This document shows, one piece after another, positions 511-30,419 of a stretch of 37,216 nt of DNA. The notes beneath the pieces are model-generated. The model did no database searches. It saw only the letters and a list, made by a program, of their open reading frames with translations, and was not told the origin of the DNA. Every line of letters begins with the position of its first letter. The first letter of the stretch is position 1. The stretch lies in NCBI GenBank assembly GCA_003990765.1, contig RBNJ01000193.1, positions 1 through 37,216 on the forward strand, written 5' to 3'. The stretch is from Jimgerdemannia flammicorona. Its lineage: Eukaryota. The translations under genes and the position numbers were made by a program.

Positions 511-2160
511 TCTGATATCTGATTCTAGATAATATAGAACTAAAGAAAAAACTCAGACCCTGCTGTATTAGACTATTTGAAATCTTAGAGATAGTTCTAT
601 TATATATAAGCTAGACCTTCTAGTAACTCTAGAGAGAATCTATCTGATATTTCAAATATATATTCCAACTTTAGCCATATACTCTAAATATCTTTAAAAA
701 AAGAATTATACATATTACTGCTAGATTTAATTATTATTAACTAAGAACTAGAATATAAAGTTAATTATATTTTAAATCATAAGAACTAATAATTTAGATA
801 AGCTACTAAGTCTACTTAGTATTACTTAGTAAAATAGAAAAGTACTTCAAATATAATACTATCTGAAAAAAGGAAGATAATCTTCTACCAAATATAAAAG
901 AAGCAGTAATCTAATATAAATATATAATATAATAGAAATTTCAATGGAATTTTCAAAGAATGGTTATATTTCTGATAAGATAAGTATAAATACCTCTGAA
1001 TATTATATAGATAACTCTCTATAATCTAAATAGTTAATAACAATACTGTAAACAAACTAAGAACAAATTGCTATAATTATTTTTATAACTATTGAATATC
1101 AATAAACCTCTACTGAGTTACTCTTTATCAATATATAAATCTCTAGAAATCCAGATCTAAATGAAGTTTAATAATATCTTAGAAGAATCCAATACTTTCA
1201 AATCTTTTGCTACTAATAAAAACTGAAGAAATATTATAAAATAAAATAAATTATCTATTAATAGACTACTCTCAGTAAGGCTAAGCAACTATTCTATCTA
1301 TTTATTAATAACTATACCTATATTATTATAAAAAAACTATATGTTCTTTTTTATATCTGACTCTAAGTCCTTGATCATCTCTATAGAATATCTCTTAAGA
1401 ATATTGCCAACTTAACTGATAAATATTAGAGCAATATCATCTTTTAAGTAGTCTAGTATATAGTCCTTCAGTTTGATAAATATCTAAAGTTTAGTATAGA
1501 ATTGAATGAGTAAGTTCTAACAAAAAAGAGAAGAATGTAATAGTTTATTATAGTAACAAGCTATTGGAAATTATGATAGAATTTCTAATAGAAATACTAA
1601 TAAAGTTCCAATAGAACTTATAATGAAATTTCTAACATAATAGTTATATATACTATATGTAGTATAACTATATATAGATATATCTAGTATATCATATTTA
1701 GCCATAGTCCAAAACTGTATAAATATCCTTATACTGAGTATATTGAAACCTCAGCTCTACTTTTCTCTCTCAAGAATAAAGAAGTATATATTCTTATCTA
1801 GAACTCTCAGACCTAACTTATTAACAATTCTAAGCCTGATCAACTTGGAATATAAATACAGTACCTCCACTCAGCACAAGAATCTGAAAGTGATATTTGG
1901 ACTATACTCTTGCAATAGACATTTGGAATTTAGTACTTCTTTATAGAACTCAGAACTTAGGGCTAATAGTCATCCCTGATTATCTACAACATATCAATTC
2001 TATCAGCATATAGTTTTATTACACATTTTTAATAATATTGATTTATTTGAAATATAATTAGACAGACCTTATTTAAAGTATTATAAAAAAACATATATAT
2101 AATTGAGCTAACTAAATAGCAGATAAACCATAATAAAAAAGCTAATAAGAGTTCATCAAA
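511..2160. other. AT-rich, CpG-depleted degenerate sequence, probably an unclassifiable TE relic
   Basis: Very low GC, essentially no CpG, same texture as the identifiable relics at 26.5-31.4 kb. No recognisable protein motif. Confidence 0.4.
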
Positions 2161-3504
2161 CTATAGACGAAGTTAGTTTAATCAGTATAAACAAAATAAT
2201 TGTCCGTTCTCCATTATGTAAATTTGTTTATTTGGAAGAATCGGAACCCTGGTTCTCAGAATGTAATCTCTTCTTCCTCTTCTCTGTGTATTGCAGACGT
2301 CATTGGGTTTACATGATAGAATTGCACAAACACAAGCACAAGATTCTGTATCGCCGTGGGAGATTTGTGGAGTTAGCCCCTGAGAACTCTGGCGGTTGAG
2401 GAAGAACAGATGGAATATAGGGCATTATTTCATATCCTTAGTATATGTCGTGATTTTTTGTACACATGTTTTAATCCTGGTATACATAATAATAAAGTCA
2501 TCTGCCCAATTTTCCTGATTCCAAGATCCTCGCTACAGACTAAAATGTGCTTGTAGTACTAGTGTCGGATGAAAACTGTGACATTTCAATAAGACGAGCA
2601 GGGCCATTGGTATCCCCTATTGCTCTCCTTGCGGTGATACTTCACTTACTCTCTTATGAACTGAACTGTCGTTATTCATGCAAAACGAAAGCGTATTTGA
2701 GTAGTACAAGGAAATATTGAATTTGAACAAGTATCCGGTTACAGAGTTCTGTTCGGGTACGGGCCACACTATATATGTTGCCGTGATGGCTGGTTATCCC
2801 TTCGGATGAAGCTTCATAGACTTATATTCACATTCAAGCTAAACCACGTAATGATTCTTATGAGAGGGCTAGGAGAGCCAGGAGAGCCTGGACTTTGCTG
2901 AACTGTTTGAAGAATTCTTTGCGCAGATCGCGGACGTAATATGCCAACGATAGCAGACCGCGGTTACTAGGAAATGTCATAGCTGAGGAATATGCATCGC
3001 TGTTTCACCAGGAAGAAAACAGCGGGTGGCAGTCTCAGTCTAGAAGACATCAACGCGCCCGATGTCGTCGTGCGTCTGCTGAACTGGTTGCTGCACGCTT
3101 AACGGAGGTTACATGGCTCATTCTTATTTCAACGTCCCCGAGCGGTCGACACTGACGAAAGCCGCTATAATGAAGGAACCGGTTTGTCGTTAGAGAGTAC
3201 GATGGGATGCTTCGCACATTGGCCTTCTTTTCGATTCGAGTTCAATGGGAGGGCTAATTTAATTTAATTGCTTGGCTGACTAATGGTGGTGCAGCAAGAT
3301 ACCATCACTCATTTCCCGCGACAAAGTGCCAAAGAAAAGGACAAAATCCATTTACTGGCGCGACATCCTCATCATCGACCAAAAGTTATCCGCTGGACAT
3401 ATAGCTCACCACAGAGGGTTTAATGCGCCTTTCTACCTATGAAATACTAATGTGTAGTGGGGTCACTGAGACCTCATACTTTTGAGCCTTGGATTGCTTT
3501 GCAG

Positions 3505-4105
3505 GTATCCTTACGAGTTTGCTGTTCATTCCCCGCATCCAACACACTCCGCCTCCGCTCCTCCTTAACCAGCTTTGGCTCGCGCTATCTGCCTTAACCT
3601 AAGCTCTATCGTCCCTTTGCAACAATCTCTTCTCGGCCCAAATCCCTCGCTCATCTTGCGCTCGGCCTTACTGCCCGCAATCCATCTCCTTATTGACCAA
3701 CTGATCAATGTGTTATGCGTCCCTGCAGACGCTCTGGACTTCCTGCCCTCTCTGTCTCGAGGGCAGTCGGAACGTCGACAACCTGTTCCTCTCGTGCCCT
3801 AGAAAATGCGCTACAAGATAAAGACCGTCGCGGTAGGGAAGACCGGCAGCGAGTGGCCGGTTGTTGTTTAACTATTCTAATGAGTTTGATGGCCAGTTAG
3901 TGGAAAGGGTTGTGAGGACTTGCCCGAGGCTCAAGGTCATCGCGCCGCCGAGATATTTGAACGCGAACGAGGAGTTCGTTAGGTTTATGTGGCAGGATGC
4001 GTTGGAGTTTGATGATGCAAAGGTGATGCGCCGTAGGCTGAAGAAGTCCCTCTGTATTATAGTAGTCGCACTTTGTCCTCCCAATCTACATACATATATT
4101 TTTCA
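3505..4105 (+). pseudogene. Possible frameshifted remnant of an F-box/RNI-like LRR protein gene
   Basis: GC-rich coding-like pieces in shifting frames: LARAICLNLSSI, LCASLQTL..LEGSRNVDNLFLSC, FDGQLVERVVRTCPRLKVI (CPxL-type LRR motif). No clean continuous ORF. Confidence 0.3.
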
Positions 4106-4645
4106 TCTTGTAATTAAAAAAAAAAAAAAAAAAAGAAAAAAGAAAAAAAAGGCGCATGTACAATCCCGCCTCAATGCCATGACATGGCGGAAGGAGAATA
4201 TGTCGTTCTCACGAAAATGTGAAACGCTAATGTTTTGGAGGTTGTGAGTGATGAGCCAGTCTTTGAGAGAACGACGCTTGCGTTCATGGTTGCGACGACA
4301 ACACAAGCTTCAAAGCTATATAAATTGACTTGCTCGTACTCGACTGTCATCTGTAACAGATATACTTTTGGTTGATTGTCAGTTTTCAACATCGTCAGGA
4401 ACTGGAAGACCAGGCATCCGAGAAATCGTACACAAAGACTTCCATGCGGGTGGCGTAGCGCCGTTTGGTCTTGTTGGGTTGTGGGATGGGGTTTGGTATG
4501 CACTTTCATGTAAATGCCTCTTTATTATTAATAGACACTTCATAGTTTACAATTCGCCCGCAATCCACTCGTGCGTGACCCACAGTGCATTGGTAAAATC
4601 TCCATCAACGTTCATTTCATTCATCTCCCCTCCTAAATCTCCCTT

Positions 4646-6042
4646 CTACAACTTACTCCCCCCACCAGGGCTCCTCCACCTTGGCGCCCTCTTATCGACG
4701 AACGCCTGCAGCCCCTCCTTGAGGTTGTCGCCGCGCAGCCACTTCTCGGCCTCGGGCGAATCAAGCAGCTGCGCGGTGGCGTTCGTAAGCGAGTCGGTTT
4801 CGAGAGCGAGTAGCAAGCCCTTCTTGGTCAGCTGGACGGCGTCGGGGGATCTATGTTGATGGGCCTGGGGTAAGTAGGGTTGTCGAAATCTTCCTTTTCC
4901 CACAACCCTCTAAACTCATAATAGCGGATACGTACGCCTCGACAATCCTCTTCGCCCACGCCAACGCGTGCGGAACGACATCCTCGATGCGGGGGACAAG
5001 CTCGTTAACAAATCCGAAATCGCGCGCCTCGATGGCGGTGAGGTGGCGTCCCGTGAGGGCGATCTCAGCGGCTCGTTGGTAGGCTAAGGGTTTGTGTGTG
5101 GGGGAAGGATCGAATCATGTCAGTGCGAGGATGAGATGATGGGAATGATTGTGTGAACAGGGATGGTACGTACTAACGGCGCGGGCGACGCGGGCAATGC
5201 CGCCCATTCCGGCAACAACGCCGCGTTTGACTGCGAGGGTTATAGGGGGAGGGGTATGAGATGGATAGAGGTAAGCGAGCGACATAGAATGAGTGGATCC
5301 AATATTTATAATGCGAACCGAGGAGAGAATTAAAACGAGGAGTAGGTCCAACATGACACGATACCTTCCGGCAGGCCGAAGGTGGACTTCGACGACGCGA
5401 CGACGATGTCGCATGCCAGGACGATCTCCATGCCGCCACCTAACGATGTGAGAATGTGAGAATGTAGTGTCGGAACGTCGTTACAGCCAGGAAATCAGTG
5501 ATAGCCGAGCGAGTGCCGCTGACGGTTCCCCTTCCGATCACTCTCTAACAACGAAAAACAAGATGAATAAATTCGGCTACGCACCGAGCGCGATCCCGTT
5601 AACGGCAGCGATGACAGGTTTACGGGCGTCGTTCCTCCTGCTGAGGCCGCCGAATCCCGTGGGCGGCATGACATCTTGGGGCCAGCCCTGGGTGGCGTGG
5701 GCACTCTTAAGGTCCATGCCGGCGCAAAAGGCGCGCTCACCCGCGCCGGTGATCTGTGGGTATTGTGTTGGTGTGGTTAGGGACCCGTGACGTGCGGGTG
5801 TGGTGAAAAAGGTCCCGGACCGATGCGTAAAACAATAAACTCACCACGACGACCCACACGTTGGGCTGGTCCTCGGCCCAGTCGAAGACGCGGCTCAACT
5901 CCCACGAGGCCTCGAGGGTCAGGGCGTTAAGCTGCTTAGGACGGTTGATGGTGACGAGGAGGACGTGGGGTTTGGGTACGGCAAGGATACAAAACTGGGT
6001 GTTGGGGAAGGGGGGCAGCTGGGAGTTCGTTTTGGCGGACAT
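4646..6042 (-). CDS. Enoyl-CoA hydratase/isomerase (crotonase family) with peroxisomal PTS1; 6 exons: 6042-5845, 5753-5585, 5439-5365, 5230-5174, 5083-4936, 4850-4646
   Basis: The spliced GT-AG model stays in frame. Motifs [83 protein letters not shown]-terminal SKL*. Confidence 0.93.
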
Positions 6043-6374
6043 GTGGACAATGTAATGTAGATGACCAGGAGAGAAGGGAAGTTGTCTGATCGGACCCAAG
6101 AGCCCAAGAGTAGAAGCGTCACGTGAAGCCACTGTTCGACCCATCTAATTAACTATTACAAGAATTGTATATAATGAATTATAGCCACGCGAGAGCTAGG
6201 TCAATGCGATGACACCACGCGCGATGCTCTTCTCTCCTTCCTACTATCCCTCTGAACGAACCAACGAGCGACCATACAACGCGTCATCCTAATTATATAC
6301 TGTTATGACAGTCACTAGTCCTCCATAAATTTTCACAATCAATGCAACCCGTCTTTTTCCTACTCTCCTGTACC

Positions 6375-8970
6375 ATGCCCACTACCCTCAACCTCGTGCA
6401 TTTTAACGATGTCTACCACATCAGCCCGAAGAAAAAGGAGCCCGTCGGGGGGGCCGCCCGCTTTGCCACTGCCATAAACAACCATCTCGACAGTCTCAAC
6501 AAGAAAGGGCCAGACGGGGACCACTGGGTACTGTTCAGTGGCGACGTATTCAGCCCGAGCATGGAGAGCTCCATTACGAGGGGGAATCACATGTACGTAT
6601 CTCTTCCTTTATTTGGTCCAATTGTCGTCGATTTTGGCCACCAACGTTCCATGCTTCACCCTATAGGGTCCCGATCATGAACCAGCTTCATATAGCCGCC
6701 TCTCTGGCGGGCAACCACGACTTCGACTTTGGCGTGCCCAACCTGCAGAAGCTGATCGGCGAAACCAGCTTCCCCTGGCTGCTTTCCAATATCTTGGACG
6801 AAGCCACGGGCGAGCCGCCCGAGGGTTTGGGCCAGTTCCTCGTGCTTAAAGGAAGGAAGAGCGGCATCAAGGTTGGCATCATTGGGCTTGTCGAGAAGTA
6901 AGTTTAAGAGTAAAGGCGAAGGAGGAACATTTCTGCACAATGTATGGGGATTTTGTCATGTGAGCAATGTAGAGATCACGAATAACGTGACCCACACCTC
7001 TTCAGAGAGTGGATCGTGACGATCCCCAATTTCCCGCCCAACCTCAAATACCACTCCGCATCTGATAAGGCGCGCGACCTCTCACGGACGCTACGCGACC
7101 CGTCTGGTCCGCACGCTGTAGACATTGTGGTGGCGCTGACCCACATGCGGCTGCAAAACGACCTGATCTTCGCACAGGAGACGGCGGGGGAGGTGGATCT
7201 CGTGCTTGGCGGGTGAGTGTTTTGAATCCAGCCGGTTTGAACGCCATCATGCATGGTTGGTGTGCACACATTTCATCATACTCACCCCCCCCCCAAAAAA
7301 TAATAATAATTACACAGCCACGATCACTTCTACTATGTCTCCAAATCCCTCGCTCTCAGCGGCCCGGACTGGTCGCGCGACCGCAACATCGCAGCCCAGA
7401 GAGGGACGGACCCAGAACCCGGGGAGCCGGACCCGCGCGTGCGCGTCGTCAAGAGCGGTACGGACTTTCGCGAGCTATCCTTCGTCAAGATTGTGGTCGG
7501 GGATCCGGTGGGGGAGGGAAGGAGGGAAGTGGTCGAGGTTGAAGGTACGTGCATGCTTCGTCGTCTCTTTAATTTATTTGAGGGCGTAATTTTGGATCGA
7601 TCTTCTGATCTCCTTCTCCTCACACCCAAACAGTCACCCGCCAAGAGATTACTTCCACTCTGGCCGAGCACCCGCCAACCGCGGCAATCATCGCCCAAGT
7701 GACCACGTTAGTGAGCGCCAAAACCTCTCGTCCAATTGGCTACACGTGCACGCCCCTCGATGGCCTCTTTTCGACGGTGCGCACGCGCGAATCTAACCTT
7801 GGCAACCTGACCGCCGACCTCATGCAGCACGCCTACGCCACCTGCATCCCCACGGGCGTCGACTTCGCCATCTGTAACGGCGGAGTTCTACGCGGCGACG
7901 CCATTATCGATAAGGGCGTCATCACCCTCGGCGATATCATGAACTTCTTTCCATTCGAGGATCCCGTCGTCGTAATCCGTATTTCCGGCGCGCGCGTCCT
8001 AGCGGCACTCGAAAACTCTTTCGCCGAGTACCCGAAACAGGAGGGAAGGTTTCCGCAGGTTGCTGGGCTGCGCATCGAATGGGACCCGAAGGGCGAGCCG
8101 GGTGCTAGGGTACGAAAGGTGCTCGTCACGAAGTCGAACGGCGATAGTCACCACGGCGGAGAAAGGCAGCATCCGTCAGGGCTTCTGGCACCACCGACGG
8201 GCAGACCAGCACCGTTGCCGTCCCAGCCGCAGGGCGAGCCACTTGATCTGGAGCGAGAGTATGTACTGGCGACGCGGGAGTATATGGCACAGGGAGGTGA
8301 CGGTTTCACCTCCCTTGTGACCCCGCCCCAGGACTACATCGTAGACGGGGAAAACGGTATGCTCATCTCTGCACTCTTTCGGCGTTACTTTCTGGGACTC
8401 AAGTACGTCAACGCCATGCGCACCCACTTTGAGCACGAGTGCACCACCCACAAGCGCGTCGTCGAGGCTGCCCATGTGTGGCGACTGCACGCTAAGAACA
8501 AGCGCGCGAGGGGGTTGCAGGCGGCCGCTGGGCCGGAATCTGGGACCGAGTCCGGGACCGAGACGCCTTCCGGGACGGAAATATCAGAATCTGGATCCGG
8601 CGCCGAGACCGACGCGTCTTCCGTCAAAGGTGGGGAAGAGGGCACGGACGGAGCGGCGCATTCAACGACCAAGGGCGGGATATGCGACGCGCTCACGCAT
8701 TCGGTGAAGGGGCGGCCGTGTTGTCTGAGAGGCGTTCATGGGTCTATGACTGGAGAGGATGTCGAGGATACGAAGTTTATGAGGAAGTGTGAGGAGGTGG
8801 TGGCCGAGTTGGGGGGAGAAAAATCGGAGGAAGTGAAGAGGGAGAGTAAAGAGACGGAGGAAGGGCAAGAAGAGAAAGGGGAGGAGGAGGATGTGGTTAG
8901 GTGGGTCAGGGAGTGGGCTAGTGTCGGGCCCGTGGTCGAGGGAAGGATTGTCGAGGTCGCGGAACAGTAG
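6375..8970 (+). CDS. 5'-nucleotidase/apyrase family metallophosphoesterase (metallophos + 5'-NT C-terminal domain); exons 6375-6592, 6667-6897, 7006-7212, 7318-7544, 7634-8970
   Basis: The spliced model is in frame. Motifs HFNDVYH, GGAARF, FSGDVFSPS, GNHDFDFG, FPWLLSN, ALTHM, GGHDH, VRTRESNLGNLTAD, NGGVLR, FPFED, GRFPQVAG, GGDGF. Acidic low-complexity C-terminal region. Confidence 0.93.
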
Positions 8971-9463: not shown

Positions 9464-12400
9464 ATGTCCGCCAACACCCGCCTACAGAACTTGCTGGCCC
9501 GATTAAAACCCTGGGACGATCTGCACAGAAACCACCAAACAGAAATCTTGGCGTGGAAGGGTCGGTATTCCCGTAACGACCAAGAACTCCGTGCCTGCCT
9601 CGACACCTTGGGCGTGCCGCAGCTGGAGCCATACCTTGCCTGGATTCCGACAAATAAACTATATGGTCTTCAGCAACTTGCCGAAGGCGGGTTTGCCAAA
9701 GTTTACCAGGCACATGTTAATGTGAAGTCAATAGAGTACCAGGTGGCCGCCAAAGAATTAAAGTTATCGATGGTTCCAGAGGTGAGATCCGGTTGATGTA
9801 ATATACAATATATTTTCGACATAGCCTCACTTATCGGTAACCTTGTTATGTCTTCATCCTAACAATATAGTTAGTGCTGAATATTTACTTGAGTCGCTGC
9901 GGAGATGACGTCAACAATCCTCCTACAATGGAAATTGTTGGTTTGTCACGACATCCAGAGACCAGCATGTATCTGATGGTTATGCAGTTTGCCGACCTGG
10001 GTACTCTCGAGAATCAGCCATGCGAACAAGATGGCGATTGGTACACCGCTTTAACATATGCCATAAAACTCGCCAGGCGCTTGGCCAGTCTCCATGATAT
10101 GGGTTTCATCCATGAGGATCTCCATGCGGGTAATGTAGTATTCCACAAGTCTCACACCACGCTTTTGATCGATGTTGGCCTTAGCCGTTCTGTGGAAGGA
10201 GCACATTTCAAGCAAGGAGCCTATGGTCGGATAGAATACCTCCCTCCAGAGATCTTCGAGAATATACAGTTTACACAGAAGTCGGACGTCTACTGCTTGG
10301 GAACCCTGCTGTGGCAGCTGATCGTCGGCGTCCCACCACAAGGCATCGCATCGACAGCTGTTGCCAACAATCCAGATGGACTCCGTGAGCAGATGATCCC
10401 TGGTGCACCAACGGCATTCAACAATGTCATTCGGAGCTGCTGGCATCCTGACCCCGACCAGCGACCGAGCACCCTTCAAGTCTACAATCAGTTGATTGAA
10501 TGTGCAGCCGATTTAGTCGGGATTTCTTCTGTCGTGCAACCAAGCATGGAATGGCAAATTCTGGGACAACTTGCAATTGCACCAGTGCCGTTTTTACCCG
10601 AGGTGGAATCGTTCATTGTCTCACGACGGGCCATCTATCAGCAAGAGTTGGAATTCCGAAACAGCAGCGTCGCCAGCAGTGTCACCAGCAACGTCGCCAG
10701 CAGCGTCGCCAGTAGCAGTGTCGCCAAAAGCGAATTCTACACATGTGAACAACTCAAGCGAATCGCAGAAGAGGACTCTCAACTGGCGCCTGTCACTCCA
10801 CTACAGCAACCAAGTCTAGGTATGTCGCACAACAGCCCACTGCATATCATATTTACATTTACATACTAATGGGCATTTGTGTTCTTGTTTCTTCTCCCAT
10901 CATTCAGACCATAATAGCATCACAGGTAATGGTGGCGAGTGAGAGGCGGGCGATGATCCGATAAGGAATAACAGTTTTCCATACCACAATTGGACTTACA
11001 GCTAACTGTTAGTTTTATGCATGTTGATTGTTAACATATATCAGAGAAAGGTATTGAGACTGGCGAGACTGATGTTGCTGAGCCTCTGAAGCAGAATGTG
11101 ACCAGTATGTCTGAATTTCGTGAATCATTATTTGCAGCTGTCTGATGGGATCAAGCTATATTTTACATACATTTGTTCATCTTCTTTTATTTTCAAACAA
11201 TGGCATTGATGACAAAGAGGCAAGATCTCTAGCTGAGTATTTGAAGCAGAACTTGATCTCAAATGAGTTGAATATCTCTGGTATAACAAAATTGTGAGAA
11301 CTATTATTTATAGAACATCAAGTTCTTTATATACTTAACTTTTCATCTTTATTTACTTTTAGGAAAGAGTATTGGTGATAGGGCTGTACGCATTATTCTT
11401 GAGTTTTTAATACAGAATACAAATTTAACCAAACTCAATCTCAGCAGTATGTCAACTATTATTTACAGCCTTATGGTAGAAGCAAACTTATGATTTAGGA
11501 GTTTTCATATTTTCTGTTCATATTCAGACAACGGTATCGGCATTCTATTGGCCCGCTCCCTAGTTGAATATTTGAAGCAGAACACGAGCATTATTGAGCT
11601 GAATATTGAAAGTATGTCAGAACTATGTGAAGGATTATGGGCAGCTACATGATAGAATTTAGTTTATGTTTTGTATGTTCGCTCATTCTCTGTTCATTTA
11701 AAGAGAATAGCATTGGCGACGAGGGGGCACGCGCCCTAGCCGAGTCTCTGAAGCAGAACACAACCTTAATCAAACTGAATGTCTCTGGTATGTCAAAACT
11801 TTGTGAAGCATTGTGTGCATCTGTATGGTAGAATTAAGCTCACAAACTGGGCATGTCCACTGATCACTTGTTCATTTCGAAGAGAATAACATCGGCCACG
11901 AGGGAGCACACGCCCTAGCTGGGTCTCTGAAGCAGAACACAACCTTGGCCGAGATAAATCTCTCTGGTATGTCAGAACTGTGTGAAGAATTGTGTGCAGG
12001 AATTAAGTTCGCGATAAGGGTGTTCGTTCATTTTCTCTTCATTTTAAAGGAAATTTCATTGGCGACGAGGGAGTATATACCATAGCTGAGTCTTTGAAGC
12101 AGAACATGATCTTGACTGAGATAAATCTTGACAGTATGTCAGAACTGTTTGAATCACTGTGTGTGTGCATGATGGAATCAAGCTCACGATATGTGCGTAT
12201 TCGTTCATTCCCTGATCATTTTAAAGGAAATATTATTAACGACGAGGGGGCACGCGCTCTAGCCGAGTCTCTGATGCAGAACACGACCTTAACCAGGCTG
12301 AATCTCTCTGGTATGTCACGACTGTGTAAAGTATTGTGTGCAGCTGCGTGATGAAATTAAACTCACGAACAGTGAGTGTTTGCTCATTCCCTGTTCATTT

Positions 12401-15400
12401 TAAAGGAAATACCATTGGAGACGAGGGAGCGCAAGTTTTTGCTGAGTCTTTGAAGCAGAACGCGAGCTTGACTGAGCTGGATCTCTCTGGTATGTCATGG
12501 AATCGGGCTCACGATCTATGCATGTTCGCTAATTCCTGGTTCATTTTACAGATAATAGCATTGTCGACAAGGAGGCATGCGTCCTATCCGCGTTTCTGAG
12601 ACAGAACATGACCTTGACCAAGCTGAATCTCTCTGGTATGTCAGAACTACCTGACGGAATCAAGTCCTCGATTTGTGTGTGTTTGTTCATCCCCTGTTAT
12701 TTTAAAGAGAATAAGATTGGCGACGAGGGGGCGACCTTAACCGAGCTAGATATCTCCGGTATGTCGAGGAATTGTGTTCAGCTGCGTGATGAAATCAAGC
12801 TCACGATCTGTGTACGTCCGCTCATTTTAAAGGGAATTACATCGTCGACGAAGGAACATGTGCCTTAGCGCTAAATCTCTCTGGTATGTCCAAACTGTGT
12901 GAGACATTGTGTTCAATTGTGTGATGGAATCAAGCTCATGACCTGTGCATATTTGTTCATTTTAAAGGGAATCATATCGGCGACGAAGGAGCACGTGCCC
13001 TAGCGATGTTTCTGAAACAGAACACGACCGTGACCAAATTGAATCTCTCTGGTATGTCAGAATTATGTAATGTATTGCGTGCAGCTGTGTGATAAAATCA
13101 AGATTACAATCTGTGTGTATTCGCTCAACCCTATTCATTTCAAAGGAAATGACATCCGCAGCGAAGGGGCACGCGCCCTAGCTGGGTCTCTGAAGCAGAA
13201 CACGACCTTGACCGAGCTGAATCTTAATAGTATGTCAGAACTGTGTGGAGTATTGTGTGTATGCAGCTGCATAATGTAATCAAGCTCACGATCTGTGTAT
13301 GTTCGCTCATTCCTTAATAATTTTAAAGGAAATATTATTGGCGACGAGGGGGCACGCATCCTAGCCGAGTCTCTGATGCAGAACACGACCTTGACCGGGC
13401 TGAATCTCTCCGGTATGCCACGACTATGTGAGATATTAGCTGCAGCTGCATGATGAAATCAAGCTCACGATCTGTGCATGCTCGCTCATACCCTGTTCTA
13501 TTAAAGGGAGCGACATTGGCAGCGAGGGGGCACGCTCCCTAATTAAGTATCTGAAATATAACATGACCTTGACTGAGCTGAATCTCGAAGGTATGTTAGA
13601 ACGTGCAAAAATTGTGTACAGCTAGATGGAATCAAGCTCATGATCTGTTCATTTGCTCATCCCCTGTTCATTTTAAAGAGAATGTCATCGGAGTCGAGGA
13701 GGTACGGGTCCTAACGGAGTGTCTGAAGCAGAATATGATCTTGACTGAGCTGAATCTCTTCTGTATGTCAGAGCTGTGAGAAGTATTGTGTGCAGCTGTG
13801 TGAAGAAGTCAAGCTTACGATCTGTACATGTCTGCTCACCACTTGTTCATTTACAGTCAACAGCATTGGTTACAAGAGGGCATCCCGCCTTGCCAAATCT
13901 CTGAAGCGCAGCTCGACCTGGACAGAATTGAATCTCTCCTGTATGCCAGGACTACGTGAATCATTGCGGGCACCTGTAATACAGCTCACGATCTGTACGT
14001 GTTCGCTCATCTCCTGTTCATTTTATAGATCATGGCATCGACAACGAAGAGACACGCGCCATAGCCGAGTTTCTGAATCAGAACATGACCGTGACCAAGC
14101 TGAATCTCGAACGTATGTCAGAGCTGTGTAAAGGCATTGCGTGCATCTGCGTGATAAAATCAAGCTCACGATCAGGGCATGTTCACTCATCCCTGTTGAT
14201 TTTGAAGAGAGTAACATCAGCCATGAGGGGGCATGCACTCTAGCCGAGTCTCTGAAACAGAACACAACCTTGACCGAGCTGAATTTTTCTGGTATGTCAG
14301 AACTGTATGAAGTATTGTATGCAGCTGTGTGATGGAGTCAAGTTCACAATTGTTCATTTTAAAGGAAATGGTATCCACGACGAGGGAGCACGCGCTCTAG
14401 CCGAATCTCTGAAGCAGAACACGACCTTGACCAATCTGAATCTCGAACGTATGTCAGGACTATGTGAAGTATTGTGTGCAGCTGTGTGATGGAATCAAGC
14501 TCACGACCCGTGCACGTTCGCTTGTTTTAAAGGGAACTACATCGGCAACAAGGGAGCATGCGACCTAGCGGAGTCTCTGAAGCAGAACACGACATTGACC
14601 GAGCTGAATCTCCAAGGTATGTCAGGTCTGTGCGGATCATTGTGTGCAGCTGCATGATGTAATCAAGCTCACGATCTGTACATGTTCGGCCATCACCTGT
14701 TTATTTTAAAGGGAATACGATTGGCGACGAGGGTGCACGCGCCCTAGCCGAAACTCTGAAGCAGAATACGACCTTAACCGAGCTGAATCTTTCTGGTATG
14801 CCACAACTGTGTGGAGCATTGTATGCAGCTGCGCGATGTAATGAACCAAACAATCTGTGCGTGTTTGCTCATACCCTGTTAATTTTAAAGGGAACAAGAT
14901 CGACTACAAGATGGCACACGCCCTAGCTGAGTCTCTGAAGCAGAAGAGGTTCCTCAAGTCTTTGAAGCAGAACACGGCCTTGACCAAGCTGAATTTCTCT
15001 GGTATTTCAGAACTATGTGAAGCATTGCGTGCAGCTATATTATGGAATCAAGCTTGCGATCTGTGCGTGTTCTCTTACCCCTGTCCATTTTAAAGGGTAC
15101 AATATCGGCAATGAATGGGCATGCGTCCTAGCCGAGTTTCTGAAGCAGAACACGACATTGACTGAGCTTTATCTTGATTGTATGTCAGAACTATGTAAAA
15201 TATTGTGTGTGGCTGCGTGATGGAATCAAGCTCACTATCTGTGTGTGTTCGCTCATCCCTTATTCATTTAAAGGGAATGAGATTGGCGACGAGGGTGCAC
15301 GCGTCCTAGCCGAGTCTTTGAAGCAGAACACGACCTTGACCGAACTGGATCTCAAAGGTATGTCAGAACTGTGTGAAGTATTGTGTGCAGCTGTGTGATG

Positions 15401-16766
15401 AAATAAAGCTCACGATCCGTGCATGTTCGCTTATTTTAAAGGGAATAAGATTGGCGGCGAAGGTGCACTCGCCCTAGCCGAGTTTCTGAAGCAGAACACG
15501 ACATTGACCGAGCTGAATCTCTCTGGTATGTCAGAACTGTGAAGTATTGTGTGTAGCTGTGTGATGGAATCAAGCTCACGATCCGTGCATGTTCGCTTAT
15601 TTTAAAGAGAATAAGATTGGCGGCGAAGGTGCACTCGCCCTAGCCGAGTCTCAGAAGCAGAACACGACATTGACCGAGCTGAATCTCACTGGTATGTCAG
15701 AACTGTGAAGTATTGTGTGTAGCTGTGTGATGGAATCAAGCTCACGATCCGTGCATGTTCGCTTATTTTAAAGGGAATAAGGTTGGCAACGAGGGTGCAC
15801 GCGCCCTAGCCGAGTCTTTGAAGCAGAACACGACCTTGACCGAACTGAATCTCGAAAGTATGTCAGAACTGTGTGCAGCTGTGTGATGAAATCAAGCTCA
15901 CGATCTGTGCATGTTCGCTTATTTTAAAGGGAATAAGATTGGCAACGAGGGCGCATGCTACCTAGCTGAGTCTCTGAACCAGAACGCAACGTTAACCAAA
16001 CTGAATCTCGAATGTATATCAGAACTGTGTAAAATATTGTGTGCGGCTGCATGATGGAATCAAACTCACTATCTGTGCGTTTTCGCTCATCCCTTTTCAT
16101 TTTAAAGGGAATGAGATTGGCGACGAGGGTGCACGCGCCCTAGCCGAGTCTTTGAAGCAGAACACGACCTTGACCGAGCTGAATCTCAAAAGTATGTCAG
16201 AACTATGTGCAGCTGTGTGATGAAATCAAGCTCACGATCCGTGCATGTTCGCTTATTTTAAAGGGAATAAGATTGGCGGCGAAGATGCACTCGCCCTAGC
16301 CGAGTCTCTGAAGCGGAACACGACATTGACCAAGCTGAATCTCTCTGGTATGTCAGAACTGTGAAGTATTTTGTGCAGCTGTGTGATGGAATCAAGCTCA
16401 CGATCCGTGCATGTTCGCTTATTTTAAAGGGAATAAGGTTGGCAACGAGGGTGCACGCGCCCTAGCCGAATCTTTGAAGCAGAACACGACCTTGACCGAA
16501 CTGAATCTCGAAAGTATGTCGGAACTGTGTGCAGCTGTGTGATGAAATCAAGCTCACGATCTGTGCATGTTTTCCCATCACCTGTTCATTTTAAAGGGAA
16601 TAGGATTGGTGACGAGGTGGCACACGCACTAGCCAAGTCTCTGAGGCCAAATCTTTCTGGTATGTCAGGATTGTGTGAAGCATTGTGTGCAGCTAGGTGA
16701 TGGAATCAAGTTCACTATGTTTATGTGTTTATGTATCCTACACTCATAGCGTCAAGAACAAGGTGA
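9464..16766 (+). CDS. TKL-like non-RD protein kinase fused to 34 RI-type leucine-rich repeats (~1357 aa if all exons are used). Exons 9464-9781, 9871-10819, 10908-10925, then 34 LRR exons from 11045 to 16659, final exon from 16750 (3' end uncertain, possibly 16807)
   Basis: Kinase motifs LAEGGFAKVY, VAAK, LVMQFA, FIHEDLHAGN, IDVGLS, YLPPE, KSDVYCLG, CWHPDPDQRP. The phase-1 donor at 10820 leads into phase-1 exons encoding NxIGDEGARALAESLKQNTTLTELNLS. No stop codon occurs in any LRR exon or sequential junction. Confidence 0.85.
10662..10725 (+). repeat. 12-bp coding minisatellite (AGCAGCGTCGCC-like) encoding an SSVA repeat linker
   Basis: NSSVASSVTSNVASSVASSSVA between the kinase domain and the LRRs. 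Confidence 0.7.
11045..16749 (+). repeat. Tandem array of 34 exon+intron units (~125-205 bp). Exons: 11045-11104, 11197-11280, 11363-11446, 11528-11611, 11704-11787, 11883-11966, 12050-12133, 12227-12310, 12406-12489, 12552-12635, 12708-12758, 12833-12883, 12968-13051, 13146-13229, 13329-13412, 13507-13590, 13679-13762, 13857-13940, 14029-14112, 14208-14291, 14365-14448, 14533-14616, 14712-14795, 14891-15001, 15096-15179, 15274-15357, 15442-15525, 15608-15691, 15774-15857, 15930-16013, 16108-16191, 16264-16347, 16430-16513, 16597-16659
   Basis: Each unit has an acceptor (mostly TTTTAAAG), an 84-nt LRR exon, a donor (mostly GTATGT) and a homologous intron (GTATGTCAGAACTGTGTGAAGTATTGTGTGCAGCTGTGTGATGGAATCAAGCTCACGATCTGTGCATGTTCGCT...TTTTAAAG). 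Confidence 0.95.
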
Positions 16767-20333: not shown

Positions 20334-23300
20334 ATGGATATGAGACTGCCAGGATTCTATAGATATACCTCAGATGAATTAATCATCACTTTCATTGATG
20401 ATTTCGAGCAGTATGCTGCTGTAAGGACTCTGACAGCAGCACAGCAAGTAGCCCTCATACCCTTCAGCCTACGAGGCCCTGCTAGAGCAGCATTCACAGC
20501 TGCAACCCATGCAGGAAATGATACTAATGCCATACTGACAGCACAGAAGACCTGGCTCTGAAATACATATTACACAGATGAGATTAAGCAAGCCCTGAAG
20601 GATCAGCTCAACACAACATGCCAAGGAATGAGTAAGGATCCAAACATATTCTATACCAGAATTCGATATCAGATAATCCTTGCAGATTATGCTGCTGCTA
20701 TCTGAGATCAAGTAGCCAAAGCAATCTTCATGAAAGGAGTCCATTCAGAAATAGCCATGGCCATCCACTCATCACCAGTGATTCTGGATCTACCACAGAA
20801 GGTCACCTATGCTTAGCGATACTGGATAGCCAGACACCCACAAGACCATATAATGGAGAGAGTTACAGAAGTCAGAATCGAGGCACCCAAGGCAACCAGT
20901 GTGATCCCCATCACAATGATCAATCGAAACACACCTCAGCCAAAAGCTACAGAGCAGCAAAAGAACAGTGACCCTATGGAGGAACTCACCAAAAGATTTG
21001 CTGAAATGACTGCCCACCTGGGAGATGTAGTAAAGGAAATCTGAGGAAGAGATCACTGCTCTGTTTAGAAGTTTGCCACCATCTCAGATAAGAAGAAAGG
21101 TACCTGCTACAGCTGTGGAGAAGAAGGCCACTACTCCTATGAATATATGAGTGAAATCAAATGCAAGGCTCAACCAAGCAATGCCACATAAAATAAGGAG
21201 CAGGCCAATATAATCACCTTTGAAGAAATTGGAGAATCCGACAAAGAGGAATGAGAGGCCTATCCTGCTCAGACTACTAAGAAGGATGCTCGCAAAGAAC
21301 CCTACAAGAGACCGCCAGGAAGACCTAAGAAGAACCCAGTGGAAAAGTAGATGGAAACTGCCACAGAAAGCCAAGCCAAAGAGATGGACCAAGATATTGA
21401 GCTGGAGCAAGTAGTTCAAGATATCATCTGAGGAACCACTCCAGCCAGTGAAGGAGAAAAAGAAAAGAAGCTTTGCAAGACCAAGACCTTTAAGTATGAT
21501 ATCTTCAAGGATCTCAGTCAACAAAAGATCAATGCAACCTTTGGTCAGCTTGCAGAAATCCCAACATTTAGACAGCAAATGAGGTTTGGACTTGCCAAAA
21601 CAACTAAGGAACAAGGATGGAAGATAACTGAGGCCAATAATGTTCAAGAGGACTTAGGAGAAGAAAGTGAGGACAATCACAAAACCTCTGCTTATGCAAC
21701 ATGCTAAATTGAAGATAGAACCTTTGAAGCCATCATTGATATGGGAGCAGGAGGATGTCTCCTCAGTAAGAAGGCAGCAGACCACCTAGGTTGGGATGTA
21801 GAAGAAGCAACTAAGCTAGTATTTGTCACAGCTGATGGTACAAGAGCCACACCTCTGAAAAAGATCCGAGACATTCTCATCAAGATCGGAGGAGCAACAA
21901 TCTCAGTAGATGTAATCGTAATCAATGCCACCAACTATGACATCCTCATTGGCAATCAATGGCTTCACAAAGCTAAGGCAGTAATCGATCTCAATGCTCA
22001 GAAGATGCAGATCACCTATCAGGGACAGAAGATATGAATTCCCTTCAATGTTAACAAAGGAGTCCTGCCCAATATGGAGGAAGAAGAGAGTGAGCAAGAG
22101 GAAGCTTATATGGTAACTACTCCAAAGAAGAAGAAAGTTGGATGGATGAGTGAAGAAGAATGGTGCAAGAAGATTGCAGAAGGTTATACCCCACAAGGAG
22201 TCTGTCCTCATGGAATCAAGATATACTGTATGGAGCATGTCAATGATTGCTACCAGTGCACCATTGGAACCAAGAAGATCTACCAGGAAAGAAGGCAGAA
22301 AGCTCTCGAAAAACAGATCAGGGAAGAAGAGAAGGAGGAAAATGATGAACCACCAGCCCTCCTAGAGGACAGTGATAATGAAGAAGAAATCAAGGTCAAG
22401 ATTCAAAAGATCCACCCTGATGCAGTCTTGCCAGAATACAAGTCAGAAAATGCAGCCGGAATGGACATCGCTACAGTAGAAGAAACTGTACTGGAACTCC
22501 AGACAACCACTCTACTCGCAACTGAACTGGAGATAATCATCCTAAAGGATTATGTTGGGATTCTCAAGATAAGAAGCAGCCTGGCTAGAAGTGAAATCAC
22601 AATCAAAGGAGGAGTCATTGATTCAGACTATACTGAAGAAATTCTACTCATTGCTAGAAACCACAATCCTACAATTCCATTCCCAGTCAAAAAGAAGGAC
22701 CGATTGGCACAGATGTTGATCTTCCCAATCATACAGCCAAGGATCATAGAAGTCAAGAATCTAGAGAAAACAAAAAGAGGAAAAAAAGGATTTGGATCTA
22801 CAGGAAGAGGAGTATTCGCCAGCACCAAGATCACTGAACTCGAGCATAAGAAGGAGAAAAACATGAGCAAGCACAGTTACACCATTGGAGACGAATTCCC
22901 ACTCAAGGAGGAACTCAAAAAAATACTCCACAAATTCGAGAATGTCCTTGCCACAGATTTCAAGGATATCAAGGGAAAGACCCCACACTACTATCACAAG
23001 GTAGATACCAGAGACACCGAACCAATTTATCAGAAGGCAAGACTCGTCCCGCCAGCCTACCGAGAATGGCTCAGAGAAGAAATCAAGCAGATGGAAGAAG
23101 CCAGCATCATCAAAGAAGCCAGCAGCCCCTGGTCTTCACCAGTTGTACTAGCTCTGAAAAAAGGAAGCAAACCTGGAGAATTTGCCCCAAGGCTCTGTGT
23201 CGACTACAGAAAGCTCAATACAGTTACCAAGAAGGATTGCCAACCACTACTACTCATCAGTGACATCCTTATAATACTGGGAGATGAAGCAGAGTACTAC

Positions 23301-25511
23301 AGCACCTTGGACTTATACTCAGGATTTCACCAAATCAGACTCACAGAGATGGCAAGTGAAAATTCAGCCTTCATCACCCCAGACGGAACCTATATCTACC
23401 TATGAATACTATTCGAAATATGCAATGCACCAGCAAGCTTTCAGCAAATGATGAACAAAATCTTTTGCTATGATATGGGAAGATGGATGATGGTCTATGT
23501 CGATGATATAATCATCTACAGCAAGACACCTGAGGAACATCTGCAGCACATATAGCAGATAATGGAGAGACTAAGACAATATGGCCTTTATATCAAACCC
23601 AAGAAGTACAAGTTTGCAGAAATCGAGATCTCCTATCTCGGCCATATTATCAATCAAGATGGAACACACATGGACCCCCTCAAAATACAAGTGATAGCAG
23701 CATACCCAAGGCCCACTACTGTCACAGAAGCCCAAGCCTTCATAGGACTTGCCTCCTACTATCGCAGATTCATTAGAGGATTCTCCAACATCGCAGGTCC
23801 AATCTATGAACTCAATAAGAAGGATACCAAGTTCCAGTAGACTGGCAGACAACAAAAAGCATTTGACAAACTCAAGATCAGACTAACTCAGGCACCCATC
23901 CTCAGATGACCCAATTGGACTCAAGAATTTATCCTTCAGACGGATGCAAGTGCATAGGGACTAGGAGTAGCCCTAGCTCAAAAAGAAGATAAAAAAGAGT
24001 ATATCATTGCATATCTTAGCTGTGGAACCCGAGGGGCTGAAAAAGAATATGAGTCCTACAAGTTGGAATGCCTTGCAGTCATCTGGGCTGTGGAAAAGTT
24101 CTACTACTATCTGGCTGGAAGACACTTCACCATCCAGACAGACTACTCAGCTCTCACCTGGCTACTGACAACTGGACAACCCAAGGGAATCTATGCCAGA
24201 TAGATAATGAAGTTACAAGCCTATAATGTAACCATCATACACTGCCCCAGAAGAACAAATTCCAATGCAGATGCTCTCTCACAGACACCTTGAACTACCT
24301 CCAACCAATAAATCAATCATGAATAAGGAGCTCTACTACGGAATTATCACATACCTGGGACAGCAAAAGATGCCCCAATATCTGGAAGAATGGATACAAA
24401 TAATTATCAATAGGATATGGAAACAATTTGAAACTGATGGAGAAACACTGAAGAAAGGAAAATTACTGGTCATACCAGAACACAAGAAGAAGCAAGCGAT
24501 GAAATCAGTATACGAACTTGGCTATCTAGGAGAAACAAATACATATGATAAGGCAAGAAGAATAATATGGTGGCCAGGGATGGAGAAAGATATCAGACAA
24601 TTTGTCAAGACATGTGACAAATACCAGAAACAGAAACAAGACCAATGGAATCAAGCCCCAGGATCAGTACACATAGAACCAGTACCATTTGCCCATATAG
24701 CAATGGATGTAATCAGTCCTCTACCCTTGACCCTGACTGGTAACTGATATATCATTGTCATTGTAGACCTTTTTATGAAGTAGATAGAAGCAGGACCCCT
24801 CAAGAAGCCAATGCACAGTCAATCGCTGATTTCTTCCACAAGGAAATCATCTGCCAGTTCAAGACCCCAACACAAGTAACTACTGATAGAGGAACAGAAT
24901 TTGTGAACCAGCTCTTTGAGGTTCTCTACAAGAAGTACAAGATCCAGCACATTCGGACCACAGCCTATCACCCTCAAGGAAACGGACAAGTAGAAAGGAC
25001 CAACAAAACCCTTAAGAATGTTATCGCCAAGATCTGTAATAACTATGAGAACTGAGATCACTATCTGCCAATAGCACTATCTGCTCTCCGGGATATCTGA
25101 TCACAAAGTACCCATTTTACCTCTTGAGAAATGCTGTTTAGAGAAGAATGTTCTCGAGGAACCCTATCATCCAATGGAGATACCGTATGGAAATATGTGG
25201 ACATGGAAATATGGAGACTATACCAAATCAGGAAGAAGGCTGAGGATTACATAACCAAGGCGCAGACACTATAATGGAGGAATGCAGAAAAGACCCACAA
25301 GTCCTTGAAGATTATCAAGATAGGAGACAAGGTCCTAGTATATCAGAATATAGTAGAAGCTTCATGGTCACAAAAACTAGAGCCCAAGTAGGAAGGACCT
25401 TACCTTGTGCAAGATATAAAAGGGACTACCTTTTGGCTACAAAAACCCTCAGGCACAATAATCTCCACCACCATTCACCGAAACTGACTCAAGAAATATC
25501 ATGGCCAGTAA
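20334..25511 (+). pseudogene. gag-pol polyprotein with many premature stops and frameshifts
   Basis: Gag from 20334; decayed zinc knuckle CYSCGEEGHYSYEY (21105); protease AIIDMGA (21729); RT SPWSSPVVL, RLCVDYRKLN, LDLYSGFHQI, VYVDD; RNase H FILQTDAS, KLECLAVIWAV, NADALS; integrase WWPGM, TDRGTEF, TAYHPQGNGQVER. Gag to RH lie in one frame; 1-bp shifts near 24280 and 24800. Confidence 0.92.
22389..22805 (+). other. Trimeric dUTPase domain within Pol, between protease and RT
   Basis: All five motifs recognisable: AAGMDI, RSSLA, GVIDSDYTEEI, RLAQM, RGKKGFGSTG. Confidence 0.92.
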
Positions 25512-25962
25512 CAAAAGTACTGCAATGGTACTCAAGATCACTAGTGCTGCCCAAAGAGCTATCAAAAGACAATGGCACACCACCAAGCCTCCGACCATAG
25601 AGGCATACTATGAGGATATTCAGAGTATTATGCAGACTCATCTCTCTTGGATCTCGCACTTTAGAGCCTATCAATATCAGGCAGAATTCCAAGAGTACTT
25701 CAAGCTTGGACAGGTGCTCAATCAGGATCCAGCAAAGACCAAAGAGGACTGAATTGCTGAGTGTCAACTCTCCCACTCACAGATCACTATCACCAAAAGG
25801 ATCTACAAGTTATTCTGAGAAGATAAACTAGTGATAGACCACCTGAGAGGAGTAATCCCCACCGACTTCGAGAAAGTGAGAAGACATTATTGGGAAACAG
25901 TCATACAGCAAATTGCACAGTATAAAACCATATAGATGGTTGAAGCCTGGGAGTTTGAATAG
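25501..25962 (+). pseudogene. Extra ORF downstream of integrase, unknown function (~150 codons when internal stops are read through)
   Basis: The ATG overlaps the pol end (..KKYHGQ*). The frame continues MASNKST...KED*IAECQL...KRIYKLF*EDKLVIDHLRGVIPTDFEKVRRHYWE; the internal stops are explainable as CGA>TGA and CAG/TGG>TAG decay. Confidence 0.6.
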
Positions 25963-28250: not shown

Positions 28251-29070
28251 TAAAGACTCACTGACTCTTTATATACTATTATCTATATACCAAAATCTTG
28301 AATATAGCTCCCAAAGATATCAGTAAGATTTTCACCAGAATGAGATTTTAATAGCTTATAAAATCAATCAATATATATTTAAGTTACTAATTTTGACAAA
28401 TCCAATATATATTAATTCCAAGAAATGTATATATATTTAGTGATATCTATGTATCAATAGTGAAGAATATTCAATCTGATATATTCTGTTTTGGGGTAGG
28501 TTAAATCAAAATGAAATATTGAAATTAGTATTCAAAGTTAAATATTAGATCTTACTTATAGTATAATTTTGATAGTATTATGATTTCTTTAAAAGGCTAG
28601 TTTAATTTTACTTTATTAATATCTAGTTTCAAAAGGCAAAAAAGATCTCTTAGCTCTAAATTCTCAACAACTATAAAAGGCTAACTATTATGGATAATTT
28701 AGTAAATAAAATAATTTCATAAAAAATCTTAGCTATTTAATATAAAAGAGAAATATCAAATAACAATAAATTAATAAATAAAAAACAAAAAACAAAAGAA
28801 GCAAACAAATAATATAAAAATCATACTTTTGAGAAAAACAATTCTATTGCTCCTGTTTAATAACGTTTGTAAAATTTGTCAAAATGTACTTATAGATTTG
28901 TTATAGAGCTACTAATAAACTTATATATTATTTTGTAGTAATTATATTTGACTCTTCTGATATCTCCATTCTCTGTATACTCTTTTGTAAACTCTTTCTA
29001 AATACTAGAGCATTCTTTTACTTTTGCTTTTCCTTTCTTAGACTATTATATTAAGACTACACTTATTATA

Positions 29071-30173
29071 CGGGTCTGGTGGTTGAAGAGAGCTGCTGAA
29101 CTGCAGGGAGGGGGATGGGTGCCACTGATGCAGAAGGTGTGGGAGATGAGGACCACCCCTCAAGAGTTCTCAGGAGATCTGCTCTCTTTGGTGGGGCTGA
29201 ATGGAAATCAGTAGCTACAGTTTAAGAGCTTTTGGTAGGGGATGGCAGATGGAGCTCACTGAATTGGCCTGTACTAGCAAGGCAATGAGGAAGAGGTAAT
29301 ATGGGGTCCTGGTATGTGGTGATGGGATAGACTGCTACTGAGGGGTGTTTTACTTGCTGAGTTTAATATTGGAGATAGAGTGGAGTATCAGTAGAGTCTT
29401 GGTCTAGATCTTTGGCCAAGTGGCTAGCAGGCAGCAGAGATTGGCAAAGAGTAGAACTAAGCAAGTATCTAGTCATGGAGTACTGTGGTGCAAAGGTGGC
29501 TTTCTCCCAAATTCTGGGTGGTGTAGTGGTAAATGCTATGAAGGAATATCATATTGAATTACCATACTGGGCATATGATGGATGGTGGCCATTTAGATTG
29601 TGAGGAGTACTATAATGTTGGGCAGACTGGGAGACTGGTGCAGATGCCAGAATACTGGCTGGGAGAGTGTAAGGTTTTGGAAGACTTTTGGATAGAAATT
29701 GGGAATAGACTAGGTGTAGAGCATAGGCCGGCGGAGGAGGGAGGCCACTGGGAGAACTTGCGATCTCAGTTAGTGGATGGTGTAGGTGATAGTTGGCTCA
29801 CTGTAGAATGGGTGTTAGCAGTGTGGGTAGGACTGGCCAGATATTGGCTTTTTGTATTTAAGGAGGAGAGGCAGATGGGGCTGCAGGAGAAGATATTATA
29901 GTGGGAGGAGTTGTTGGGGGATCTGCTGACTGGATGGTGGGTGGGTTGGAGTCCTCAGGGGGGGTAACATCATGGCTTGGTGGTAAGGATCTATGAACAG
30001 AGTGGTGGGAGGGTTGAGATAGTACTGGACAGAGTAGCCTTTCAATGGATAGGGGTAGGAAGGAGAGACCCCCCTAGGGGGATCGGTTAGGGGGTGGGTT
30101 CACTGTATTTATATGGGATAGATGGGTATAATAAAGAATAGAAGTCCAAGTGACTATAAAAAAAAAAAAAAAG
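29071..30173 (+). mobile_element. 5'-truncated non-LTR retrotransposon (LINE 3' end) with poly(A) and TSD
   Basis: G-rich decayed coding-like body, AATAAA followed by an A15 tail. TSD AGACTACACTTATTATA (29054-29070) vs AGACTATACTTATTATA (30174-30190). The 3' terminus resembles that of the LINE ending at 37216. Confidence 0.85.
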
Positions 30174-30419
30174 AGACTATACTTATTATAGCTATATTTG
30201 TTGAAGCTATATCTGACACTGAAGCTATTATCATAGTATTCATCATAAGTGATACTATAAAAGATATATCTGATATACTTGATTGTGATATGCTTAATTA
30301 TGTGTATATATTATTATTGTGAGTTATATCATATGTGAGTTTTGAATTACTATATTTAGTTTTGAATTTTGAATTCAATTCAAATTATAACTTAATTTCA
30401 TTTGATTCAATTTATAGTC

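Follow-up and report, generated by a model that had tools for sequence, protein, structure and literature searches.

Ciliates, brown algae and vertebrates all have leucine-rich repeat (LRR) genes with one repeat per exon. The gene considered here lies in a stretch of 37,216 nt (hereafter the window) from the fungus Jimgerdemannia flammicorona (assembly GCA_003990765.1, contig RBNJ01000193.1). Positions 9464-16766 most likely form one constitutively spliced gene of ~1,300 aa, in which a cytoplasmic non-RD tyrosine-kinase-like (TKL) kinase is followed by ~32 LRRs of the ribonuclease inhibitor (RI)/NOD type. In each repeat an intron splits the codon directly before a conserved Asn, and this codon and its upstream neighbour appear to be under diversifying selection.

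The available text on the Tetrahymena LRR genes with 90-bp exons (Xiong et al. 2019, PMC6564038) describes one repeat per exon and a uniform phase from clonal expansion, together with repeat numbers that vary, genes that undergo ectopic recombination or conversion with one another and some kinase fusions, in all of which the present family is alike. It also describes a 'junction' amino acid to which two exons contribute. The Tetrahymena exons are in phase 2, whereas those of the window gene are 84 bp long and in phase 1, and the junction residue is not reported in that text as a selected variable site, as it appears to be here. The LRR-ROCO genes of brown algae (Zambounis et al. 2012, PMC3341825; Teng et al. 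2024, PMC11378527) are similar, in the portions available, in having one LRR per exon, shuffling and positively selected concave-face sites, and in being candidate immune receptors. They differ in their 72-bp phase-2 exons, plant-type LRR and Roc-COR GTPase, and their selected sites (14, 16, 18 and 19 of the 23-residue exon-encoded motif) lie within the exon. Alternative splicing is reported for them (PMC11378527), whereas none was seen here in the joints of contigs from two runs, X1 and X2, which are presumed to be RNA, are proved spliced and drop rare forms.

The vertebrate NOD/NLRC exons (Hoss et al. 2019, PMC6642158) are alike, in the part of the paper available, in their RI-class repeat of 28 residues, one per exon, with a border that is fixed in place and preserves the frame. 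That border is described as lying within the beta-sheet, whereas here it lies three residues beyond the strand, and the NOD/NLRC repeats are old, not homogenised and preceded by a NACHT N-terminus in place of a kinase. Among fungi, the repeats of NLR genes (Podospora NWD WD40, ANK and TPR; Dyrka et al. 2014, PMC4986451) are described in the available text as having high internal identity, concerted evolution and approximately four positively selected positions per repeat. These repeats are not LRRs, whereas the window gene carries intron-split LRRs and has no NB domain. According to the portions available, fungi have no LRR pattern-recognition receptors and their NLRs lack LRRs (PMC4986451, PMC12881547). 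A literature search, within the text available, turned up neither an account of this fungal family nor one of a split codon under selection.

The best longer homologue is a hypothetical protein of Endogone sp. (P0001, 769 aa), with 59% identity over the kinase exon, followed by Endogone and Jimgerdemannia kinases. P0001 likewise has LRR_6 repeats after its kinase; they share the consensus of the window gene but number ~11 versus 32. That the assembly contains the complete window gene speaks against a receptor put together somatically in the manner of variable lymphocyte receptors.

Organisation of the LRR array

The array occupies 11363-16659 on the forward strand and was delimited by a scan for donors and acceptors; its introns are homologous. 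It consists of 32 one-repeat exons, 28 of 84 nt, two of 51 nt, one of 111 nt and one of 63 nt, every length being a multiple of 3. The exons start at 11363, 11528, 11704, 11883, 12050, 12227, 12406, 12552, 12708 (51 nt), 12833 (51 nt), 12968, 13146, 13329, 13507, 13679, 13857, 14029, 14208, 14365, 14533, 14712, 14891 (111 nt), 15096, 15274, 15442, 15608, 15774, 15930, 16108, 16264, 16430 and 16597 (63 nt). All have an AG acceptor, a GT donor and phase 1, and are hence frame-symmetric; the exon border of NOD2 is in phase 2. The 31 introns between them are 62-99 nt long. Acceptors are mostly AAG within TTTTAAAG (27 of 32 in the window and 193 of 368 family-wide).

The 84-nt exon comprises two bases, 27 codons (N-x-I-G-x-E-G-A...L-A-E-S-L-K-Q-N-T-T-L-T-E-L-N-L-x) and one base. 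Its 28-residue repeat, LxxLxLxxNxI pattern and amphipathic helix place it in the RI class (NOD/NLRC type), and RI and NOD2 are among the PDB entries matched by a single exon. A sequence-only reading of this DNA had placed every intron in the second x of LxLxxN, and all array introns do split the codon immediately ahead of this Asn. The bases and residues listed in that reading also agree with the counts. The last exon base is G in 19, A in 7, T in 4 and C in 2 of the 32 exons, the first two are GG (15), GA (7), AG (6), AT (2), AC (1) or TC (1), and the 31 sequential joins give exactly the ten residues named (G 13, R 6, E 4, W 2, plus N, K, D, F, Y and Q). The 34 exons that it counted are reached only when two exons upstream (11045-11104 and 11197-11280) are added to the 32 within the array.

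Across aligned columns the mean identity is 0.80 for the introns of the window and 0.73 for its 84-nt exons, the introns being the more alike. In the youngest block (15096-16513, forward strand), identity between neighbouring units reaches 100% in the introns and 99% in the exon cores, but their junction codons differ. Two neighbouring exons, 12708-12758 and 12833-12883, lack 33 nt of the helix region in frame, and the exon at 14891-15001 contains an in-frame internal duplication of 27 nt.

Variability and selection at the split codon

One exon+intron unit used as a query gave at least 428 matches in the same genome, and the exact junction pattern gave 220 matches with no control hits. Eighty genome stretches were taken and 74 scanned; 71 arrays were called, or 72 with that of the window. 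The 34 arrays that passed an intactness filter were used for the tests of stops and selection, while 38 were left out because they had internal stops or frameshifts, comprised fewer than 5 exons or had many exons uncalled. Intact arrays vary in repeat number, from 5 to 32 called exons, some being ended by contig borders. Exon length and intron phase are uniform, and introns across the family are 60-123 nt long.

In the window, column entropy is highest at the residue after the Asn (N+1; 3.36 bits), followed by the split codon (2.67), position N+4 (2.45) and the residue before the split codon (pre-split; 2.29). One helix position reaches 2.20 bits, and the LAESLKQNTTL columns, which had been described as comparatively constant, do range lower (0.23-1.47). 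In the 27 full repeats of the window the pre-split residue takes the same eight forms as were first listed (S, E, D, K, N, F, Q and T), and N+1 takes 12, more than ten having been noted. The split codon had been called hypervariable. It ranks only second in the window, but in 368 repeats of 29 intact arrays it has the top entropy (3.86 bits, 19 residues), ahead of N+4, the pre-split residue and N+1 (3.16, 3.00 and 2.99, respectively).

Selection was assessed on 38 disjoint junction pairs from 13 arrays, picked by intron identity alone (mean 2.1% different); this set supersedes an earlier one of 23 pairs picked on exon and intron sites jointly. The ratio of nonsynonymous to synonymous differences (pN/pS) was obtained by a counting method, with intervals from an array bootstrap. 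The residue is changed in 22 pairs at the pre-split codon, 18 at the split codon, 13 at N+4 and 10 at N+1, and pN/pS is 5.6 (2.9-9.1), 3.45 (1.4-5.6), 2.2 (0.9-3.4) and 1.5 (0.2-3.3) at these positions. The ratio is 0-0.8 in the Leu/Asn scaffold columns and near or below 1 at other exposed helix positions. The greater nonsynonymous variability expected of the codons flanking the junction is thus observed, and both the split and the pre-split codon appear to be under diversifying selection.

Of the 18 pairs with an altered split residue, 8 differ only in the upstream base, 5 only in the downstream bases and 5 in both. The pre-split codon differs by 2-3 bases in 14 of the 38 pairs, a pattern expected of block exchange, and 7 of these close pairs span two different arrays. 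The pre-split codon is wholly exonic and changes at least as fast as the split one, so that the splitting is not the cause of the variability. A local mutation hot spot is also unlikely, since synonymous variation at the junction Asn (pS 0.28-0.35) equals that at a mid-exon control Asn (0.30-0.31).

Structural placement of the variable positions

An AlphaFold model was made of the Endogone homologue P0001, in place of the spliced protein of the window. This model has a pLDDT >90 over approximately residues 550-750, where strands and helices alternate with a regular period as in a solenoid, and low confidence in the kinase half. A Foldseek search with it gave NOD2 (rabbit NOD2 at the top) and ribonuclease inhibitor as the best matches. 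Residues 654-656 (E-L-N) form the strand, and the loop that comes next contains 658 and 659, which correspond to the pre-split and split codons. In the modelled protein both variable codons would thus sit in the loop right after the concave strand, consistent with their earlier assignment to the concave face or an adjacent loop, and the diversifying selection indicated by the counting method would act on concave-face or flanking residues.

In the available part of a study of porcine RI (PMC9939524), Y430, D431 and Y433 are given as binding hot spots. The repeats were related to RI by counting from the Asn at position 404 to the next repeat (+29) with a numbering offset of one residue; the alignment to porcine RI ends at residue 421. 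By this repeat arithmetic, we take the three residues to correspond to the pre-split, split and N+1 positions. A role of the split site as a contact surface would be in line with this mapping.

Re-pairing of exon tails and heads in DNA

Recombination was assessed by a four-gamete test on two tails and two heads, the tails, and likewise the heads, differing from each other at 2 or more bases. All four combinations across the intron occur in 3 of 24 arrays (L048, L053 and L056). They give N/I/Y/L in L048 and H/R/Y/W and D/G/Y/W in L053; the tails in L056 have the same last base, so that no new residue results. Re-pairing across the intron therefore gives new residues in 2 of 24 arrays. Four-gamete sets across the exon occur in 4 of 26 arrays, and linkage between tail and head is weak, at 1.45x chance across the intron and 1.30x across the exon. 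These sets, with the close pairs that span two arrays, indicate recombination within and between genes. A preferred crossover site was not established by the linkage disequilibrium profile, by segment correlations or by one-sided near-identity. Some four-base tails recur, with TCCT in 19 and GAAG in 20 of the 34 intact arrays. L048 (G000:C21307) is a 3-kb contig that consists of nothing but near-identical units of 182 nt, with most of their differences at the junction codons.

Joins seen by selection and in transcripts

A stop arises when an exon ending in T precedes one starting with AG, GA or AA. Adjacent joins of the 34 intact arrays contain 1 stop in 459, where 14.0 are expected from permutation within chains (0 of 3000 permutations as low). 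Joins that skip one exon contain 11 stops in 405 (10.8 expected), those that skip two 11 in 359 (10.1 expected) and those that skip three 8 in 316 (8.4 expected). Selection thus acts on the adjacent join, with no sign in the skip joins that selection keeps alternative joins open. The depletion also suggests that the assembled exon order is mostly real. In 30 filtered-out arrays of the first batch, adjacent stops number 2 versus 4.6 expected.

Across the family adjacent joins form 19 residues, to which non-adjacent joins add only Pro, or 0-8 residues within a single array. Forward skips would yield a residue unlike both parents in 7-60% of cases per array. Of the 465 forward skips in the window, 139 (30%) would do so and 7 would give a stop, with I and V as the sole residues that the gene does not already have. 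The proposal that new exon pairings create new residues holds for re-pairing in DNA, in two arrays; for skipping as a selected source it is not supported.

The contigs show 15 of 72 joints, of which 3 are GT..AG joints, all adjacent; no non-adjacent GT..AG joint is seen among those shown, in what are weak data. The adjacent joints 13940-14029 and 14112-14208 lie on one X1 contig, with a depth of 115 versus 7-9 on the kinase part, which may be derived from a close paralogue. Most LRR joints run backwards or have no GT..AG ends; their best reading is that paralogues were placed on the wrong repeat (444-612 records fit two places), and they were counted neither for nor against skipping. In both runs, one joint jumps back by 79 bases inside an exon, at 16109-16187. 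This is most likely a paralogue with two similar consecutive exons; a back-splice is a possible alternative.

The kinase exons and the surrounding sequence

The first kinase exon (9464-9781, forward strand) has a likely ATG at 9464, the Gly loop GGFAKV and the AAK lysine, and its N-terminus is similar to that of P0001. The intron 9782-9870 is removed by splicing in contigs of both runs. The second kinase exon (9871-10819, forward strand) matches PF07714 with 95.8 bits (cut-off 23.1) and ends in phase 1 with a GTATGT donor. The Gly loop, the VAIK lysine, the catalytic Asp and Asn and a DFG-like motif agree with a TKL kinase, and the predicted motifs HEDLHAGN, DVG and LPPE make it non-RD, with HED in place of HRD and DVG in place of DFG. 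A domain scan of the window gene found the kinase only and no NB-ARC or NACHT domain. One X1 contig spans 10418-10819 with zero differences and continues for a further 164 letters. The window gene or a near-identical allele is thus transcribed, as shown by the spliced kinase intron in two runs and this identical contig that continues past 10819.

Between the kinase and the array, all on the forward strand, are a possible 18-nt linker micro-exon in phase 1 (10908-10925), with AG/GT borders and presumed splicing, a predicted degenerate linker/LRR exon of 60 nt (11045-11104) and an LRR exon that has an 84-nt form with a CAA acceptor (11197-11280). An in-frame AG at 11216-11217 allows a 63-nt form of the latter from 11218. 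The depth of X1 is an indirect indication of this shorter form (3.47 seen; 3.41 expected for 60+63 nt and 3.99 for 60+84 nt). The probable terminal coding exon, ASRTR followed by TGA, is at 16750-16766 (forward strand), and an X1 contig on 16749-16887 carries 86 extra letters on its upstream side.

An exon with a 5'-nucleotidase C-terminal domain, belonging to a neighbouring gene, lies at 7609-8970 and ends ~500 nt ahead of the kinase. An enoyl-CoA-hydratase-like open reading frame (ORF), read from its translation only, is present on the minus strand near 5737-6144. The region 21700-25600 is a decayed pol region like that of long terminal repeat retrotransposons, with a dUTPase domain, reverse transcriptase and an integrase zinc-binding domain. 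By eye, there is a strong G skew and little CpG from 29000 to 37216, consistent with old mutated transposon DNA.

Genes that carry the arrays elsewhere in the genome

A kinase like that of the window lies upstream in 23 of the 47 arrays with room for one. Upstream ORFs of other arrays encode NB-ARC-Sel1-Ank, Ank, Crinkler N-terminal or TPR domains. In several cases the reading frame of the long upstream exon runs into the final portion of an LRR, with an intron of the LRR type after it, which indicates that arrays were grafted inside an exon. An ORF that carries Sel1, Ank and an NB-ARC match above cut-off precedes the paralogous arrays L051 and L088.

NLR-like fungal LRR genes are seen at L051 (G000:C73), L053 and L091 (C150) and L088 and L092 (C4311). 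The long exons ahead of these arrays hold P-loop, NB-ARC, Sel1 and ankyrin domains; that of L051 spans 1096-5091, with the array starting at 5093. The Ank exon stays in frame up to its end, which is a partial LRR with a donor of the LRR type. L051 and L053 have a second NB-ARC-like ORF ahead of the arrays, and L091 and L092 have CHAT domains at a greater distance upstream. Crinkler N-terminal domain exons are immediately upstream of arrays at L059:2248-2874(-), L085:3889-4419 and L068:126-611. A ubiquitin-interaction-motif exon (L047:7479-7916) closes a kinase-LRR array, and L069 has LRR exons on both strands.

Proposed mechanism and alternative explanations

The gene is probably a germ-line kinase-LRR receptor whose variety comes from selection and from DNA exchange among units, with selection on the adjacent join, and not from skipping. 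The array grew by copying of one exon+intron unit, hence the same intron-split codon in every repeat. Three or four surface positions of the post-strand loop, including the split codon, appear, on the statistics above, to be under diversifying selection. Near-identical units may swap DNA by unequal crossing-over or short gene conversion, within exons and across introns. An exchange that parts the last base of an exon from the first two bases of the following exon would create a new germ-line residue, as in two paralogues and presumably also in the window gene. Point mutation, short conversion and unequal crossing-over would supply the variety that diversifying selection sorts, and the intron inside the selected codon would offer recombination an extra route to a residue. 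Skipping may occur as in other frame-symmetric LRR genes, with codons that do not appear tuned to it. The long solenoid would present a variable loop surface, and ligand binding would alter the activity of the non-RD kinase. Kinases of this type are linked to pattern recognition, and the gene is most likely a candidate sensor of non-self or modified self that signals via its kinase.

Several observations weigh against this account. The pN/pS ratio is only a rough measure on recombining repeats. One-sided near-identity is commoner mid-exon (129 of 212) than mid-intron (24 of 147), and segment-distance correlations are highest between exon halves (0.41 versus 0.28), which is the opposite direction. 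The combinations in L048 could be artefacts of mis-assembly, given a short contig of near-identical units. In the window alone, adjacent stops (0 versus 1.55 expected, P 0.12) are not significant and the test has no power. Isoforms with stops, at ~3%, could be tolerated at little cost, so that the stop test leaves room for skipping, and the RNA evidence consists of contigs only, crowded with paralogues and showing 15 of 72 joints.

If regulated or stochastic skipping were the main source of variety, the split codon would diversify the binding loop with each transcript. All exons are frame-symmetric, the less usual AAG acceptors predominate (193 of 368), many forward skips (30% in the window) give a residue unlike both parents, and alternative LRR splicing is reported, in the text available, for brown-algal ROCOs (PMC11378527) and human NLRP3 (PMC6642158). 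This explanation is nevertheless unlikely, with stops depleted in adjacent joins and at a random rate in skip joins, and no skip among the contig joints shown. The introns are also short (60-123 nt), and one of them (11447-11527) is retained in an X1 contig; short introns usually favour intron definition and retention over skipping. It is a little harder still to credit that this fungal lineage possesses a large repertoire of LRR sensors whose intron stays in a ligand-contact codon, and that frequent re-pairing of tails and heads, by DNA exchange among the nuclei of the coenocyte or by skipping, gives variety of binding within an individual. If true, this would be junctional diversity without a recombinase, feeding both kinase and NB-ARC receptors.

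Relaxed constraint at exposed loop positions, with the intron position as a frozen accident and no ligand-driven selection, seems quite improbable. Exposed x positions of LRRs do accept substitution, the family decays readily (38 of 72 arrays fail the intactness filter), and a single ancestral unit would suffice for the position of the intron. However, the pN/pS intervals lie above 1 at two codons, other exposed helix positions are near or below 1, and the variable codons differ at 13-50% of bases where introns differ at 2%. Targeted mutation or somatic editing beside the splice sites would write the four bases before the donor and a few after the acceptor. Multi-base changes are concentrated exactly there (14 and 6 of the 38 pairs), and a few four-base tails such as TCCT and GAAG recur in many arrays, which gene conversion with selection would also yield. 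Adjoining intron bases and synonymous sites are no more variable, and no within-run variants are conspicuous at the junction bases in the contigs, which are weak data on this point; such a process is very improbable.

Implications

The design is only partly surprising, since exon-per-repeat genes and a junction residue are already known from ciliates, brown algae and vertebrates. An intron inside a selected codon provides a built-in test of which joins are seen by selection, and it means that crossing-over can make a new residue without point mutation. This fungal genome holds dozens of LRR arrays that bear the evolutionary signature of non-self receptors, on both kinase and NB-ARC backbones.

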